Of a stretch of 64,000 nt of DNA, positions 6,687 through 63,232 are shown piece after piece. The notes under the pieces are model-generated. The model was not told the DNA's origin and made no database searches. It saw only the letters and a program-made list of their open reading frames with translations. The stretch is taken from positions 1,432,902-1,496,901 of the forward strand of contig NZ_OX296583.1 of assembly GCF_946463545.1 (NCBI RefSeq), read 5' to 3'. Within the stretch, counting starts at the first letter, position 1. Each line of letters opens with the position of its first letter. Source of the stretch: Methanothermococcus thermolithotrophicus DSM 2095. Lineage in GTDB: Archaea > AGJL01 > Methanococci > Methanococcales > Methanococcaceae. The translations under genes and the position numbers were made by a program.

Positions 6687-6740
6687 AAGGTTTTCGTAGC
6701 GAAGCGGAGAGCTACAAAAACCGAAGGTTTTTGTTTAATC
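6687..6740. repeat. Hairpin repeat element upstream of the truncated MNT-HEPN gene
   Basis: GTAGCgaagcggagaGCTAC, then ACAAAAACCgaaGGTTTTTGTTTAATC. Confidence 0.65.
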
Positions 6741-20345: not shown

Positions 20346-21986
<1,641 letters not shown>

Positions 21987-22339
21987 TTATCGTGAGTTAA
22001 TTTTCCAAAATATGGTAGTTGACAATTAAGTAATATAACTAATCATACCATTAAAAGATAGTATTTAATTCTTAGTATTTTTTTACAACTTTTAACAACA
22101 CAGTTGGTGTTTTAATTTAATGTAAGAGCTAGTGGTTAATAACAACCTTTCGTCAAACGACTATAATAACAATATAATATAAATGTTATGATCTGATAGA
22201 TTAATGATCCTATAATATTTACGTTAATTGAATATGAATATCGATCCAAAACTATTTAAGAGGATTCATAGAAATAAGAATGAAATACCACATAAGATTT
22301 TAAAAATTAGAGTATGATAAATTGTTTGTAGAATAACAA

Positions 22340-22457
22340 CTGTGCAATGATGAGTGCCGACTTCACTGAGATTATCGCCAATTCCGATTTTGTTGTTGGT
22401 GAGCTGTGAAACTAAGATTTCACAATCAATGATGACATCGGGGACGACTGAGCACAG
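22340..22457 (+). ncRNA. Box C/D sRNA with an unusually long (~60 nt) D'-to-C' spacer containing a hairpin
   Basis: C box UGAUGA (22348-53), then a 12-nt guide, then D' CUGA (22366-69). C' UGAUGA (22430-35), then a 12-nt guide, then D CUGA (22448-51). Terminal stem CTGTGC/GCACAG. An internal TGTGAAA/TTTCACA hairpin lies in the spacer. Confidence 0.55.
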
Positions 22458-22502
22458 CTTTTTTAAACAGTAAATAATAAATTACAATAATTAAATGGTC
22501 AA

Positions 22503-25500
22503 TTAACTAAAATCAAACAAAGTTTGCTGACCATATTTCAAATCAAATTCTTCTAAGACTTTTTTTCCGATTTTATCTCCAAGCAAACTGATGACTTTTG
22601 ACTGGTTCTTTGGAATGTCATCTTTGCTTTTTATTCCAGCGTTGTATAGTTTTCTGGCCCTAACTCTTCCAACGTGTTTAATTTTGAGTAACTCAATGAT
22701 ATCTTTTTTAGCACCATACTCGAGTCTTATCTCCAATTCAGATAAACAGTCTTTGATTTGTTCATTTTTTAAATTTAATTGATTAAATATTTCTTTTGCA
22801 GAATATGCCATCCATTTAGCCTGTTCAACTTTGTACTTTAAAATCCCAGGTTCAATTCCATACCTTTTTAATATATCCTCCTCTGGAACCTCATTAATCC
22901 AGTCGTAGAACATCTTTGCAGTTTTAAAGCTTTCTAAATTTTCCCAGGAATAATCATCAATATTTAAGTCCATCATTTCTAAAATTAAATCTTCTTCTTC
23001 ATGATTTCTTACTCTTAAAGGGGGCCTCATTTCCGTGGTCATTGACAGTACATATAACATATAGAGCTCTAGATTTGTATTTAACTCAGAGGATTTGTTG
23101 ATCTTTTTTAATCCATCTATAATTATTTTTGCACTATATGGATCAATATACAGTTCTGAAACTCTTTTCCCAAGTTTTGTTGGTGTAAATGCAACGATAA
23201 AATCATAATCCTCTAAAAAATCAACGACTTCTTTTACATTCCTCAAAACTCCTTGGAGACTTCCATACTGGTGAGCATAAAATGTGTTTTTTATAAAGTT
23301 TTTTAAATCCATTTCATTTTCAACTTCCCTCGTGGATATCAATCCAAGGATATGGGTTCTAAGAACTTTTTGATTGGAAAGTTTTGAGTATATGTCCTCC
23401 ACCTTTCCAGTTAAGTATTCAAAACCTTTTTCAACATCGTTTGGATTTTTTATATAGACTATTCCTTCACCATAAGGATCTAAACCAGGTCTCCCGGCTC
23501 TTCCAATACATTGCTGAATTTCCATTTTTGAAATTGGAGCCATACCTCTACCGGAAAATCTCTTTAAATCCCTTACAATTGCTCTTCTACAAGGTAAATT
23601 TAGTCCAGCAGAGTTATGTACTATAAATCCATTTGCCACAACATAATGGTCATTTGTCCCATCATCTGGTAGTTCTATGTCATAAGCATATTTGTCATTT
23701 ACCTTTATTTTTTTAATTTCTTTGATCATGCTCCAATAAATATCTCCATCATAATATTCTTTTTTCCAACTATGTCTCATTTCTTTGTAGAGTGGCTTGC
23801 CACAAATTGGGCATTTTTCAAGATTTACTAAGAAGTCATACATTTCTTCTAAGTTCTCTTTATCTTTTATATTTTTATTAAGAAGATTCATTAAAATTTT
23901 TCCTTTATCATTTAGAGAATAATATACTCCTTTTTTATTTCCACCTATCTTTTCTCTTATGATAAACTCAAAATGGGGATTCTTTCTCTTTGAATAGTAG
24001 TTATTGTAGTTCATAACCAATTTTTTTCCATTTAATAGTTCAAAAAGTAATTTTACACGCTCTTTATTTAATTCATTCTGACTTTTTGTTCTTGGCTTAA
24101 ACATAGTTAAATCAATGCTAAATCCGCAATCACACCACATTTTAGCAATTTCCTTACTTTTTACGATTTCTTCCAATTTTCTTCTTTTTTCCTTGTGTCT
24201 CAGTGGAATATTTTCATAAAATCTTTTTACACTTACAAAATCACCAATTATTAGTTCATAAATATCTCTACTTTTGTATTCTTTATTATTTGTTGGCGAT
24301 CGAAGCGAATCCTTTGGATTCGCTGTCGAAGCAAATCGAAGATTTGCTGACTCACGAAACCTTCGGTTTCGTCGAGACTTACAAAACCTGAAGGTTTTGT
24401 TAAGCTTCATAACTTTTCCTTTTCTTTTTCTAATGGTGCTATGTATTCCAAACCTCAATAATGCTAATTGTAGTTTTTTGATTAGATTTTCTGATATCGA
24501 AGAGAATCCTATTTTCTTTCTGTTGGCATTAATGTATCCATCACTATCAAACAACCCTGCAATAAAGTGTGATAACTTTTCCAATGGAAGAATGTAAAAT
24601 ACATCAATATTTTTGTTATCCTTAGTGAGCATATTTAATTCATTAAATACTTCCCTTAGTCTTTTTGAATATACATAATGAGAAACATTTCCTTCCTCTT
24701 TAATTTTTAAAAAGTATTTTTTGTGAAGTTTAGAGTCATCAAAATTTGGCGGGTATTTTGGATTAAACGTAATATCGGGACTACCTCTAAATACATTTTT
24801 TTCGATAACACCGGTATAGCCATCTCCTATAAAATATCCAATGAAATAAAGGTCCCCATAGGATAAATCAATATCTCTTTCTTCAACCACTATTTTATCA
24901 GCAGTAGCCACATAGTCCCCCACTTTTAAATCCTTTGCTTCTTTTTCACAGGTCTCTTTTCCTTTTTTAACTAAGAACAAATGATTGGGGGTTGTGGTAA
25001 TTTTTAGCCCATTTGCGGTTTTTACAACAATATTATATTCATGTTGCGGGGTTTTATGAACTTTCCAACAATCCACTGGTCTTATTTTATTTCCACACAA
25101 TGCAAATACCTTTTCATTTTTATTCAATTCTGTAATCTTTTTAAATCCACTTTCTTGCAATATCTCGGTATTTGCATTTAAACAGAGTGTCGGAGTACAG
25201 CATATAACCTTTATCAGTTTCTTTCTGAATCCTTCTTCAACTATTTTCCTCTGTTCATAGGTAAGACCTGCATGGTGAAATGCCACCCCTTTTTCAATAC
25301 ATTCTGCAAGAGCTCTACAGGTTTCAGTTGGTGGATCGAATATGCTTAAAACTTCGTCTTTCAGTTTTTGAAGTTCGTGTTTTTCACTGTGGGATAAGTA
25401 TTTCTTTAAATTCAATTTTTTTGCTTCACTAACCGCTCCTCTCTTAGAATTACAAAAAATTAAACATGAACCATCTTCATCGATACAATCTACAACCAAA

Positions 25501-26261
25501 TTCATAATGTCATTTTTATAACTATCGTTTAGGGGTTTTTGGAGTGAGCGAAGCGAACGGAGAGCAACGAAATCACTCTTCGTGATTTCGTCTAATGAAT
25601 TATTTTCATCAATGTATTCTATTTTGTTTTTATAGAATATTCCTTTTTTTAATTCCACAGGTCTCCAATCATCAATTACAAGTGTTGCATTTAGCCAGTT
25701 TGCAAGTTCCTCTGGATTCCCAACAGTTGCAGACAAACCGATTAATTGGATATTATTTAAATTCTTTAATTTCGTTAAAATGATCTCAAGGGTTCCTCCT
25801 CTTTCATCATCCCCTATTAAATGGATTTCATCTACCACTACAACAGAAACCTTATCTATCCAATCGATCCTATGTCTCATTAAAGAATCAAGTTTTTCAG
25901 CAGTAGTTATGATTAGATCGTAGCTCGATAAATTCTCTTTTTCATCAAAATCTCCAATGGACAAAGCCACTTTTAAACCATATTTTTCATATTTTTCTTT
26001 AAACTCGTCGTATTTTTCATTTGCAAGGGCTTTTAATGGAACTATAAATAGTCCCTTTTTCCCTGTCGGTTGTTTGTTTTCATCCAATAGATGGTTTATT
26101 AGGGCTATCTCTCCAATAAGGGTTTTTCCACTGGCTGTAGGGATGCATATTAAAAAATTCTTTTGTTTATCAAGTAGTCCATGTTCCAATACCTTTTTTT
26201 GCGGCGGCCTAAGTTCCGTTATGCCGTTGTCGTTTAATACACTAAAAACATAATGCTGCAT
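22503..26261 (-). CDS. hel308: Hel308/Hjm Ski2-type DNA helicase containing a 524-aa intein
   Basis: Walker A PTASGKT and DEIH motifs are present. The intein is inserted in motif VI (TPTL|C...HN|SAGLNLPCRR). The extein portion is about 728 aa. Confidence 0.85.
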   Translation of the reverse strand: MQHYVFSVLNDNGITELRPPQKKVLEHGLLDKQKNFLICIPTASGKTLIGEIALINHLLDENKQPTGKKGLFIVPLKALANEKYDEFKEKYEKYGLKVALSIGDFDEKENLSSYDLIITTAEKLDSLMRHRIDWIDKVSVVVVDEIHLIGDDERGGTLEIILTKLKNLNNIQLIGLSATVGNPEELANWLNATLVIDDWRPVELKKGIFYKNKIEYIDENNSLDEITKSDFVALRSLRSLQKPLNDSYKNDIMNLVVDCIDEDGSCLIFCNSKRGAVSEAKKLNLKKYLSHSEKHELQKLKDEVLSIFDPPTETCRALAECIEKGVAFHHAGLTYEQRKIVEEGFRKKLIKVICCTPTLCLNANTEILQESGFKKITELNKNEKVFALCGNKIRPVDCWKVHKTPQHEYNIVVKTANGLKITTTPNHLFLVKKGKETCEKEAKDLKVGDYVATADKIVVEERDIDLSYGDLYFIGYFIGDGYTGVIEKNVFRGSPDITFNPKYPPNFDDSKLHKKYFLKIKEEGNVSHYVYSKRLREVFNELNMLTKDNKNIDVFYILPLEKLSHFIAGLFDSDGYINANRKKIGFSSISENLIKKLQLALLRFGIHSTIRKRKGKVMKLNKTFRFCKSRRNRRFRESANLRFASTANPKDSLRSPTNNKEYKSRDIYELIIGDFVSVKRFYENIPLRHKEKRRKLEEIVKSKEIAKMWCDCGFSIDLTMFKPRTKSQNELNKERVKLLFELLNGKKLVMNYNNYYSKRKNPHFEFIIREKIGGNKKGVYYSLNDKGKILMNLLNKNIKDKENLEEMYDFLVNLEKCPICGKPLYKEMRHSWKKEYYDGDIYWSMIKEIKKIKVNDKYAYDIELPDDGTNDHYVVANGFIVHNSAGLNLPCRRAIVRDLKRFSGRGMAPISKMEIQQCIGRAGRPGLDPYGEGIVYIKNPNDVEKGFEYLTGKVEDIYSKLSNQKVLRTHILGLISTREVENEMDLKNFIKNTFYAHQYGSLQGVLRNVKEVVDFLEDYDFIVAFTPTKLGKRVSELYIDPYSAKIIIDGLKKINKSSELNTNLELYMLYVLSMTTEMRPPLRVRNHEEEDLILEMMDLNIDDYSWENLESFKTAKMFYDWINEVPEEDILKRYGIEPGILKYKVEQAKWMAYSAKEIFNQLNLKNEQIKDCLSELEIRLEYGAKKDIIELLKIKHVGRVRARKLYNAGIKSKDDIPKNQSKVISLLGDKIGKKVLEEFDLKYGQQTLFDFS
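23613..25184 (-). mobile_element. Intein with LAGLIDADG homing-endonuclease domain inside hel308
   Basis: Starts with Cys after TPTL and ends with His-Asn followed by Ser. LAGLIDADG-type blocks LYFIGYFIGDGY and IAGLFDSDGY are present. Confidence 0.8.
24295..24412. repeat. Multi-hairpin repeat element inside the intein coding sequence (in frame)
   Basis: Contains GCGAATCCtttGGATTCGC, GCAAATCgaaGATTTGC, GAAACCttcgGGTTTC and CAAAACCtgaaGGTTTTG. It encodes an Arg-rich peptide FRFCKSRRNRRFRESANLRFASTANPKDSLRSP. Confidence 0.7.
25541..25592. repeat. Hairpin repeat element inside the hel308 extein coding sequence (in frame)
   Basis: Contains GAGCGAAGCGAACGGAGAGC plus the ACGAAATCACtcttcGTGATTTCGT hairpin. 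It encodes DEITKSDFVALRSLRSL between helicase motifs. Confidence 0.65.
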
Positions 26262-31200: not shown

Positions 31201-31585
31201 GATTTCATCTCGTTTATTTTAATCTAAATAAAATTCACTTCAATTATTTTAATTCTCCTTGTTAAATTGTAAAGATTGCCGTCCCCTAATATAGTGATGT
31301 GCAATTTCAATTAGTATATTACACACATTTAAATTAAATCGAGACAAATTCCAAGGAATTTTAGACTCACAAAACCATCGGTTTCGTCGAGAACATAAAA
31401 TATTGTTTAATTTGAAAATATGACAATTAAAAATAAATTTCAGGTGCAGTTTATTCGTAATACACACTCTCTATAAAACACCGACTACTATTACTACCAT
31501 TGTAACATAGTATATAATAATATATAATATTAAATTCTTAAAATTCAACGTACTATATTGTGTAAAAAATATCAAGGGGGTAACA

Positions 31586-51996: not shown

Positions 51997-52614
51997 TTGG
52001 TGAGTTCTATGAAAGAAATGATGTGTGAGATGATGAAAAATATGAAACCTGAATTTATGATGGAAATGATGGATGAAATGATAGATTCAAATATGGCAGA
52101 AAATTTTGCACCTAAGATGATGCCTAAATGTCTAAATAATTTTTTATCAAAGATACCTGAAAAAGAAAGAGAGGAGTTAATAAAAAAAATCGTTGATATT
52201 ATAACATCCAAATACTACGATGAAGGCATAAATTCAACCTTTGTAAAAGAATTTGAAACTGATGTAAATATCAAAGGATTAAAGATAGCATCAAAAGGGG
52301 GAAAAGGTTCAGTGGGGGACAAAATTAATCCTATGGATTTATTTTTATCCGGATTATGCGGTTGCACAGCCATTGCAGTGGGGAGGACCTTGGAGGAGCT
52401 CAGTATTAAGGGAACAGTTAAGGTAGATGGTTCTGTTAAAAAAAGTTTTGAAAAAGGATGTATTGAACAAATTACATTGAACATCCATGTAAAAATTGAA
52501 GATAGCAGTAAGTCAGAAGAGGAGCTCACCAACATAATATTGGAAGGTTCAAAGAAATGTTTAATAAGCAACTCGTTAAAATGTGAGCTCATAAAAAATG
52601 TCATATTTGAATAG
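51997..52614 (+). CDS. OsmC/Ohr-family protein with Met-rich N-terminal extension
   Basis: C-terminal PMDLFLSGLCGCTAIAV matches the OsmC core. The first 45 aa contain 14 Met in MxxMM-type spacing. Confidence 0.65.
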   Translation: MVSSMKEMMCEMMKNMKPEFMMEMMDEMIDSNMAENFAPKMMPKCLNNFLSKIPEKEREELIKKIVDIITSKYYDEGINSTFVKEFETDVNIKGLKIASKGGKGSVGDKINPMDLFLSGLCGCTAIAVGRTLEELSIKGTVKVDGSVKKSFEKGCIEQITLNIHVKIEDSSKSEEELTNIILEGSKKCLISNSLKCELIKNVIFE

Positions 52615-53369: not shown

Positions 53370-53660
53370 TTAATCACTCGCTCGCTATTATTGTAGTTAA
53401 TCTCCAAACCTTTTAAAAAATCGAAGCAAATCACCAGCTTGTTAGTGAGCTACAAAAATTACGAAGTAATTTTTGTTTAATCAGAGCTCACGAAGTGAGC
53501 GTTATAAAACCTAACGGTTTTTAAAACCCTTAACAGGTTATGAAAATCATAATTTCAAAATCTCACTTTAGTTCGGAAATGTAGCAAAATGCGAAGCGAA
53601 GAGCTACAAAATCACTTCATGATTTTGTTCAATGCGAAGGTTTTCGTCTAATTTTAGGTA
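53370..53660. repeat. Array of GAA-triloop mini-hairpin repeat units (largest copy of the family)
   Basis: Units such as GAGCTACAAAAATTACgaaGTAATTTTTGTTTAATC, GCTCACgaaGTGAGC, AAAACCtaacGGTTTT, GTAGC...GCGAAGC...GCTAC and CAAAATCActtcaTGATTTTG. Confidence 0.7.
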
Positions 53661-63054: not shown

Positions 63055-63060
63055 AATATA

Positions 63061-63232
63061 CCTACTCAACGAAGTTGAGTAGGTATCAGATTTGGGGATC
63101 CAACACCTCTCGACGAAAACCTGAAAGGTTTTCGTGAGTCTCGACAAAAATTCAAAGAATTTTTGTGAGTCAGCGAATCCTTTGGATTCGCTTCGACAGC
63201 AAATCGAAGATTTGCTTCGATTTATAAAGGGG
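63061..63232. repeat. Multi-hairpin repeat element immediately 3' of the CRISPR array
   Basis: CCTACTCAACgaaGTTGAGTAGG, CGAAAACCTgaaAGGTTTTCG, ACAAAAATTCaaaGAATTTTTGT, GCGAATCCtttGGATTCGC and GCAAATCgaaGATTTGC, separated by TCGAC/GTGAGTC flanks. Confidence 0.7.

Follow-up and report, generated by a model that had tools for sequence, protein, structure and literature searches.

An sR105-type box C/D sRNA of Methanothermococcus thermolithotrophicus with an expanded, strain-polymorphic and partly repeat-derived D'-C' spacer

Canonical archaeal box C/D small RNAs (sRNAs) are about 50-60 nt long and carry two RUGAUGA and two CUGA boxes, 12-nt guides that obey the N+5 rule, a terminal stem and, between boxes D' and C', a kink-loop (K-loop) of 3-10 nt (RF00095, snoPyro_CD; Nolivos et al. 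2005, as cited in PMC6009581). What is an RNA that has these boxes, guides and terminal stem, and in which 60 nt lie between D' and C'? The question is raised by a locus at 22340-22457 in a 64-kb stretch of the genome of Methanothermococcus thermolithotrophicus DSM 2095 (contig NZ_OX296583.1, positions 1,432,902 to 1,496,901), hereafter the window, whose first letter is position 1. A first-pass annotation of the letters alone had called a box C/D sRNA here, either expanded by an insertion in the spacer or a composite RNA. With a probability of roughly 0.78, we read the locus as a dual-guide archaeal box C/D sRNA, the ortholog of sR105 of Methanococcus maripaludis; its expression, its assembly into a ribonucleoprotein (RNP) and its methylation activity would be those expected from the family. 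The sRNA family is already known, and what is new is the polymorphic, partly repeat-derived expansion of the spacer.

On the forward strand the locus reads CTGTGC-AA-TGATGA-GTGCCGACTTCA-CTGA-(60 nt)-TGATGA-CATCGGGGACGA-CTGA-GCACAG and is followed by CTTTTTT. The two UGAUGA-12 nt-CUGA half-mers, the 6-bp terminal stem CUGUGC/GCACAG, the D'-C' spacer of about 60 nt (exactly 60) and the hairpin inside it (hairpin C in Table 1) are all present as first described, and the spacer contains in addition a second hairpin, P2, and a GATT/AATC stem. The sRNA is 118 nt long in the window allele and 165 nt in a longer allele found in other strains. The pattern TGATGA-N12-CTGA occurs three times in the window, where Markov shuffles give 0.12 per 64 kb for the two strands together. 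Two of the three matches are the half-mers of the sRNA, 82 nt apart, an arrangement well beyond what chance accounts for. The third match, at 52031-52052, was rejected as a chance match in a Met-rich coding sequence (MKEMMCEMMKNMKPEFMMEMMDEM...), with neither a partner half-mer nor a terminal stem. When the window was searched for a box C and a box D combined with a terminal stem of 5 bp or more, this locus alone was returned (0.63 matches per shuffled window), with no further C/D candidates in the 64 kb. The G+C content of the sRNA is 45%, and that of its two flanks 22% and 16%.

Dennis, Tripp, Lui, Lowe & Randau 2015 (BMC Genomics 16:632; PMC4644070) list, in their Additional file 1, seven C/D sRNAs of M. 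maripaludis C5 identified by RNA sequencing (RNA-seq). Among them is the abundant MmasR105, with the sequence TATGCAATGATGAGTGCCGACTTCACTGAGGAACCTTTTCCGATGAAGACAACGGGGACAGCTGAGCATAAC and an RNA-seq coverage of 241,920. The window RNA has 27 contiguous nucleotides in common with sR105, spanning box C, the D' guide and box D', which are identical in the two RNAs (GCAATGATGAGTGCCGACTTCACTGAG). The D' guide thus matches at 12 of 12 positions and the D guide at 9 of 12 (sR105 CAACGGGGACAG, window CATCGGGGACGA), with the GGGGAC core kept. The order of the boxes and the predicted pair of targets in 23S ribosomal RNA (rRNA) are also shared, and in both RNAs C'/D' is closed by a short stem, which is GGAA/UUCC in sR105. 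The two differ in the length of the spacer (about 12-14 nt in sR105 versus 60 nt, or 107 nt in most strains of Methanothermococcus), in the sequence of the terminal stem and in box C', which is UGAAGA in sR105 versus UGAUGA. Judged by sequence, the window RNA is the Methanothermococcus ortholog of M. maripaludis sR105.

Further orthologs were sought in metagenomes with the query GATGA-N-TGCCGACTTC-N-CTGA. It returned 25 stretches, 10 of which are low-G+C contigs with a complete or partial sR105-type ortholog. The D guides of these orthologs differ around a common GGGAC core, a variation that would be expected if the guides track a variable rRNA helix.

Targets of the guides were examined on the M. 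maripaludis 23S rows of the alignment in PMC4644070, as a proxy for Methanothermococcus rRNA. In this alignment the M. maripaludis row carries the label M5 above GGGAAGUCGGCAAA and M5N2 above CUGUCCCCGACU. The D' guide forms 10 contiguous Watson-Crick pairs with GAAGUCGGCA (-18.8 kcal/mol), and its N+5 nucleotide makes a Watson-Crick pair with the G before the U in GAAGU, equivalent to E. coli 1670. The D guide forms 9 pairs, one of them G-U, with CUGUCCCCGA (-17.2 kcal/mol), and here the N+5 nucleotide makes a Watson-Crick pair with the first C of GUCCCC, equivalent to E. coli C1994. The first-pass annotation had named rRNA among the places to look for guide targets, and on this proxy both guides have plausible N+5 targets; the same target nucleotides are predicted for sR105 and the window RNA. 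The window contains no transfer RNA (tRNA) genes as further candidate targets. These 23S targets, together with the orthology to sR105, support the original call of a box C/D sRNA.

Each target segment is complementary to the other (-21.5 kcal/mol), and together they are equivalent to E. coli 1651-1676 / 1983-2009, which we take to be the helix closing domain IV of 23S rRNA. Other sRNAs appear to visit the same place: Iho sR114 and Tte sR51 are listed in Table 3 of PMC4644070 among sRNAs whose guide sites are distant in sequence and close in structure, and their listed alignment positions fall within the same two 23S regions as the targets of the window guides. A role as folding chaperones has been proposed for such two-site sRNAs by Dennis et al. 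2015 (PMC4644070). In the mechanism that can be proposed for the window RNA, L7Ae would bind the terminal C/D kink-turn (K-turn) and the internal C'/D' motif, after which Nop5 and fibrillarin would assemble on the sRNA. The two 12-nt guides would pair with opposite strands of the one 23S helix, and fibrillarin would 2'-O-methylate the nucleotides opposite N+5, the G equivalent to E. coli 1670 and the C equivalent to C1994. According to the proposal of Dennis et al. 2015 (PMC4644070), such a grip on both strands of a helix may also aid the folding of 23S rRNA.

The length of the spacer varies widely among orthologs. It is 4 nt, as in a canonical K-loop, in seven metagenome contigs (L092, L097, L098, L107, L110, L112 and L113; L101 holds a partial copy), where the loop reads ATTG, ACTG, TCTG or TACG. 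It is about 12-14 nt in M. maripaludis sR105, with the GGAA/UUCC mini-stem, and 25 nt in contig L091. Since orthologs have spacers of 4, about 14 and 25 nt, the spacer is the part that grew, and of the two possibilities in the first-pass annotation the one favored is a C/D sRNA enlarged by an insertion in its spacer. Hairpin spacers of 18 nt (sR102), about 27 nt (sR107) and about 34 nt (sR103) are likewise kept in the RNA-seq species listed for M. maripaludis (PMC4644070), and stem-closed C'/D' motifs seem to be common in Methanococcus. A keyword search of the main text of PMC4644070 found no comment on these hairpin spacers.

The spacer also differs between strains of the same genus. Twelve independent Methanothermococcus sources with an identical pyrG (genomes, metagenome-assembled genomes and metagenomes) were compared. 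The spacer is 107 nt long in 11 of these 12 other sources, and only the window and GCA_000376965.1 have the 60-nt form. The difference is one 47-nt block of two hairpins, ATTAGACGAAATGCTACGCATTTCGTTGCTCGCTTACTTTGTAAGCG, in the loop of P2, and the ATT on either side of it fits either a 3-bp duplication or a deletion by microhomology. Because the 107-nt form is found with either haplotype of the downstream flank (five of its sources have the flank of the window), the short allele is most simply explained as a derived deletion, and the rare allele in the window has most likely lost the 47-nt block. The boxes and guides are invariant in 13 sources, and the spacer shows the 47-nt insertion/deletion (indel) and a single-nucleotide polymorphism (SNP) that preserves a pair, G22377A, which turns a G-U pair of P2 into A-U. 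The last G of the terminal stem is A in 9 of the 16 strain sequences, leaving a 5-bp stem. Upstream of the RNA, 14 of the 16 share the same 60 nt; the downstream flank differs, and the T6 run is missing at its position in strains with the alternative downstream flank.

About half of the sources have a three-gene block (an HTH_20 regulator, an MTH865-family protein and an FMN reductase) between hel308 and the sRNA. It lies at 7565-9408 in L001, L002 and L004 and at 1935-3778 in L006, and is also found in L119-L121, whereas it is missing from the window (22458-22502), L003 and L005. In sources with the block, the sRNA has a different 3' flank and lacks the T-run immediately behind it.

The origin of the 47-nt block can be traced to a family of repeats. 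Its local alignment with a copy inside hel308 scores 28, against 15.6 +/- 2.1 in shuffles, none of 500 of which reach 28. The parts shared with the hel308 copy, ATTAGACGAAAT and ATTTCGTTGCTC, are the two arms of the first hairpin of the block, and this copy coincides with an insertion of 19-23 amino acids relative to Pyrococcus furiosus Hjm. Hairpin modules of the forms AC[GA]AAA..TTT[CT]GT and AGCGAATCC-ttt-GGATTCGCT are found at 1839-1860, 6714-6734, 24299-24398 (in the hel308 intein), 53440-53660 and 63058-63223, and the copies at 24299-24398 and 63116-63221 align over 108 nt with 78% identity (E 7e-15). A hidden Markov model (HMM) built from four family members matches the hel308 copy (25550-25596) with an E of 0.0023. 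Perfect hairpins with stems of 8 bp or more number 26 in the window as a whole, where shuffles give 14 +/- 2.8. Samples of about 20 kb from Methanothermococcus okinawensis, Methanotorris igneus, Methanocaldococcus jannaschii, M. aeolicus and M. maripaludis showed no copies of the repeat. Given the significant match to the hel308 copy and the family of hairpin modules in the window, the sequence evidence identifies the 47-nt polymorphic block as a copy of a dispersed hairpin repeat: it has related hairpin copies in the genome, and its presence varies between strains. The remaining 60 nt share TTGTTRGTGAGCT, a hairpin and AATCA with the family, a suggestive but not significant sign of relatedness. 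That the whole 60-nt spacer is a repeat copy is kept as a hypothesis only.

Small palindromic repeats of this kind have been described elsewhere. MJRE1-3 of Methanocaldococcus jannaschii are palindromic and have coding potential (Suyama, Lathe & Bork 2005). Palindromic elements of Rickettsia (Ogata et al. 2000, 2002) are reported in protein and RNA genes; both sets of work are as cited in Delihas 2007 (PMC2229807). The window family resembles them, by description, in consisting of short dispersed hairpins with copies in frame in protein genes, and it also has one copy inside an RNA gene, the sRNA, as the citing paper reports for palindromic elements. The two repeat copies within the hel308 open reading frame (ORF), at 24299-24398 and 25562-25596, leave the frame unbroken. 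The intein copy comprises four hairpins in about 100 nt, and the second copy, of about 35-45 nt, lies between the two helicase core domains. The family members at 1839-1860, 6714-6734, 53440-53660 and 63058-63223, and a further one at 31364-31392, are intergenic clusters of short perfect hairpins. Their stems are of 8-13 bp, their loops are often GAA or TTT, and their linkers include GAGTC and TCGAC.

How the guides could be unaffected by such an insertion is suggested by the predicted fold (Table 1). Box D' is followed by GAUU, and box C' is preceded by AAUC and then AAU; the terminal motif likewise consists of a stem, AAU and GAUGA. In this arrangement AA 22428-29 and U22430 make up a 3-nt K-turn bulge. 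Instead of a K-loop, the C'/D' motif would therefore form a K-turn that is closed by a stem and sits on a three-way junction. The fold is feasible; the energy penalty for forcing the 4-bp closing stem is 1.3 kcal/mol at 37 C, rising to 3 kcal/mol at 65 C. The long allele has two further perfect hairpins within the P2 loop; its folding energy is -34.4 kcal/mol (z = -4.8), and the short form has z = -2.4. A K-loop implies a loop of 3-10 nt in an RNA of 50-70 nt in total, whereas the spacer here is 60 or 107 nt and the RNA 118 or 165 nt. Because the insertion is at the apex of the loop and points away from the guides, their 12-nt spacing should be untouched.

Eukaryotic box C/D small nucleolar RNAs (snoRNAs) can have long internal D'-C' regions. 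Those snoRNAs resemble the window RNA in having a long sequence between D' and C' and an internal stem that joins the two boxes. Unlike in them, C'/D' here has perfect consensus boxes and the RNA shows the archaeal pattern of symmetrical halves and 12-nt guides, and no conserved accessory domain was found.

Table 1. Window coordinates of the sR105-type sRNA, its signals and the related repeat copy in hel308
Feature	Position	Strand	Remark
Putative TATA-like A/T-rich element TTTTAAAAATTA	22298..22309	+	about 30-40 nt upstream of RNA; possible promoter element, from sequence
Terminal stem, 5' strand CTGTGC	22340-22345	+	pairs with 22452-22457
Box C ATGATGA (fits RUGAUGA)	22347-22353	+	same in every ortholog
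D' guide GTGCCGACTTCA	22354-22365	+	12 nt; N+5 nucleotide C22361
Box D' CTGA	22366-22369	+	sequence
D'-C' spacer, exactly 60 nt	22370-22429	+	closing stem, hairpin P2 and hairpin C
Closing stem GATT/AATC, 4 bp, directly against D' and C'	22370-22373 / 22424-22427	+	fold
Hairpin P2, TCGCCAAT/GTTGGTGA, 8 bp	22375-22382 / 22395-22402	+	fold
Site of 47-nt presence/absence polymorphism	22381..22383	+	ATT on either side of block; alignment
Hairpin C, TGTGAAA-ctaaga-TTTCACA, 7-bp stem, 6-nt loop	22405-22424	+	fold
Box C' TGATGA	22430-22435	+	sequence
D guide CATCGGGGACGA	22436-22447	+	12 nt; N+5 nucleotide G22443
Box D CTGA	22448-22451	+	sequence
Terminal stem, 3' strand GCACAG	22452-22457	+	pairs with 22340-22345
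T6 run, likely archaeal termination signal	22459-22464	+	sequence
Relative of 47-nt block (ATTAGACGAAAT..ATTTCGTTGCTC)	25562..25596	-	in frame within hel308 coding sequence

Does the spacer have a function of its own? Its lack of conservation and its tolerance of an indel suggest that it is a tolerated passenger sequence and not a second functional domain. We consider it unlikely that the spacer binds an extra protein, makes accessory pairs with rRNA, as parts of some eukaryotic snoRNAs do, or alters the assembly of the small ribonucleoprotein (sRNP), for instance in whether a particle holds one RNA or two, any of which would make the RNA truly composite. The strong structure of both forms could be taken as a sign of such a domain, but high structure is expected anyway of a sequence derived from palindromic repeats. 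The strain SNP that preserves a P2 base pair and the hairpin spacers of several M. maripaludis sRNAs, by which the trait recurs in the order, point the same way; nevertheless, no part of the spacer sequence is shared with sR105, L091 or the 4-nt orthologs, and 47 nt are gained or lost between strains with nothing else changing. Moreover, the duplex energies of the spacer with the 23S rRNA around both targets and with the guides lie within the shuffle distributions (fractions 0.12-0.66), and no Rfam family was found for it. The composite RNA that had been put forward at first thus finds no support. As one form of it, an H/ACA composite was considered and rejected: hairpin C consists simply of a 7-bp stem and a 6-nt loop and has its ACA inside the stem, and no Rfam H/ACA family matches at E<=10.

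It is less probable still that the insertion broke C'/D' and left a decaying sRNA, a single-guide RNA at best or a pseudogene. Archaeal sRNPs are known to require the C'/D' motif and to be sensitive to its spacing (reviewed in PMC7994747), the terminal stem and flank vary between strains, and the Rfam C/D score of the window copy is low and confined to one half, unlike the full-length scores of compact orthologs. A disabled RNA would nevertheless hardly be expected to keep four boxes of perfect consensus, two guides of exactly 12 nt, a D' guide identical to that of another genus and the GGGGAC core of the D guide. The GATT/AATC stem and the AAU bulge also reproduce the geometry of the terminal K-turn, and the M. 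maripaludis sRNAs whose spacers measure 18-34 nt are abundant RNA-seq species. A last possibility, barely credible on the present evidence, is that the spacer is removed from the transcript as a bulge-helix-bulge intron or by other processing, leaving a mature RNA of about 60 nt with canonical architecture. Introns are known in archaeal RNAs, and the tRNA-Trp intron contains a C/D sRNA; the 4-bp helix beside the 3-nt bulge at C' superficially looks like half of a bulge-helix-bulge. By eye, however, AAU at C' is the single 3-nt bulge, and the D' side, where GAUU is followed by AUC GCCA opposite UCAC, offers no second 3-nt bulge and helix to match it, so the bulge-helix-bulge candidate was rejected. 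The 47-nt difference is an indel between strains at the level of DNA and not a product of splicing, and the M. maripaludis sRNA sequences that have RNA-seq coverage include long spacers.

Several points weigh against our preferred reading of a functional sR105 ortholog with a neutral, partly repeat-derived spacer. The guide targets were checked on M. maripaludis 23S only, and the D guide differs from that of sR105 at 3 of 12 positions and has A12, A2 and C1 unpaired on this proxy. A 4-bp closing stem on a three-way junction would be marginal at the growth temperature of about 65 C without protein. The neutrality of the spacer is argued from its non-conservation and indel tolerance, and the strains are nearly identical overall, so the invariance of the boxes is weak evidence of selection. 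As for the repeat origin, the 60-nt spacer has a best local score of 21 against 16.9 +/- 2.4 in shuffles (p 0.06-0.10), and the four-member HMM gave no match to it (nhmmer, E<=10).

Annotation by covariance with compact relatives would pass over this gene. No Rfam model matches at its gathering score anywhere in the window, and at E<=10 the best window matches to C/D models are partial, with 11-19 bits. With RF00095, whose cut-off is 45 bits, compact orthologs reach 37-43 bits over the full length of the model and the window copy reaches 15 bits over one half, which indicates that the insertion hides the gene from model-based annotation.

The sRNA lies between pyrG (20346-21953, reverse strand) and the intein-containing hel308 (22503-26261, reverse strand), the neighbors named in the first-pass annotation. 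PyrG of the window is WP_018153928.1 (Methanothermococcus), and its closest named relatives, at 86% identity, are those of M. igneus and M. okinawensis. The vicinity of pyrG held no copy of the sRNA in M. okinawensis, M. igneus or M. jannaschii; nor did the vicinity of trpF, which is within the trp operon, in M. okinawensis, M. aeolicus or M. maripaludis. The metagenome orthologs neighbor an unidentified ORF (8 contigs) or trpF (L091). As far as the loci near pyrG and trpF were compared, the genomic neighborhood is not conserved across sR105 orthologs. In the window hel308 is one ORF of 1252 amino acids, and in L003 (5589-9404), L122, L125 and L126 it is two ORFs (645 and 618 amino acids) split inside the intein. 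The region past a guaA-like (GMP-synthase-like) gene, seen in L001-L006 and equivalent to the window upstream of 19348, also differs between strains: some have an Eco57I/MmeI-type restriction-modification gene and an SNF2/PLD helicase, and others have ParE/DUF2683 and HepT toxin-antitoxin genes and a type I S subunit. This region looks like a defense-island hotspot.

One further idea, which we regard as rather unlikely, is that the hairpin repeats are active or recently active mobile DNA in Methanothermococcus that settles where it does no harm; such harmless sites may include a K-loop apex, the interdomain linker of Hel308 and an intein. On this view the insertion in the sRNA would not be a mere passenger: the change from a K-loop to a stem-closed K-turn with a bulky junction could alter sRNP assembly, in that a particle contains one RNA or two, or the stability of the RNA at 65 C.

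Our understanding of how box C/D guides work is unchanged by this locus. It provides a natural test of tolerance, in which 60-107 nt of structured RNA are accommodated in the C'/D' loop with the boxes and the 12-nt guide spacing intact, and it bears on the in vitro debate over the contribution of the K-loop to sRNP architecture. The series of spacers of 4, about 14, 25, 60 and 107 nt offers ready substrates for studying the role of the K-loop. It is also a concrete archaeal case of a small hairpin repeat that occupies an RNA gene and also, in frame, a protein-coding gene, with the sRNA copy polymorphic between strains. Finally, models derived from compact sRNAs miss such genes, and the numbers of C/D sRNAs counted in moderately thermophilic and mesophilic Methanococcales may be underestimates.

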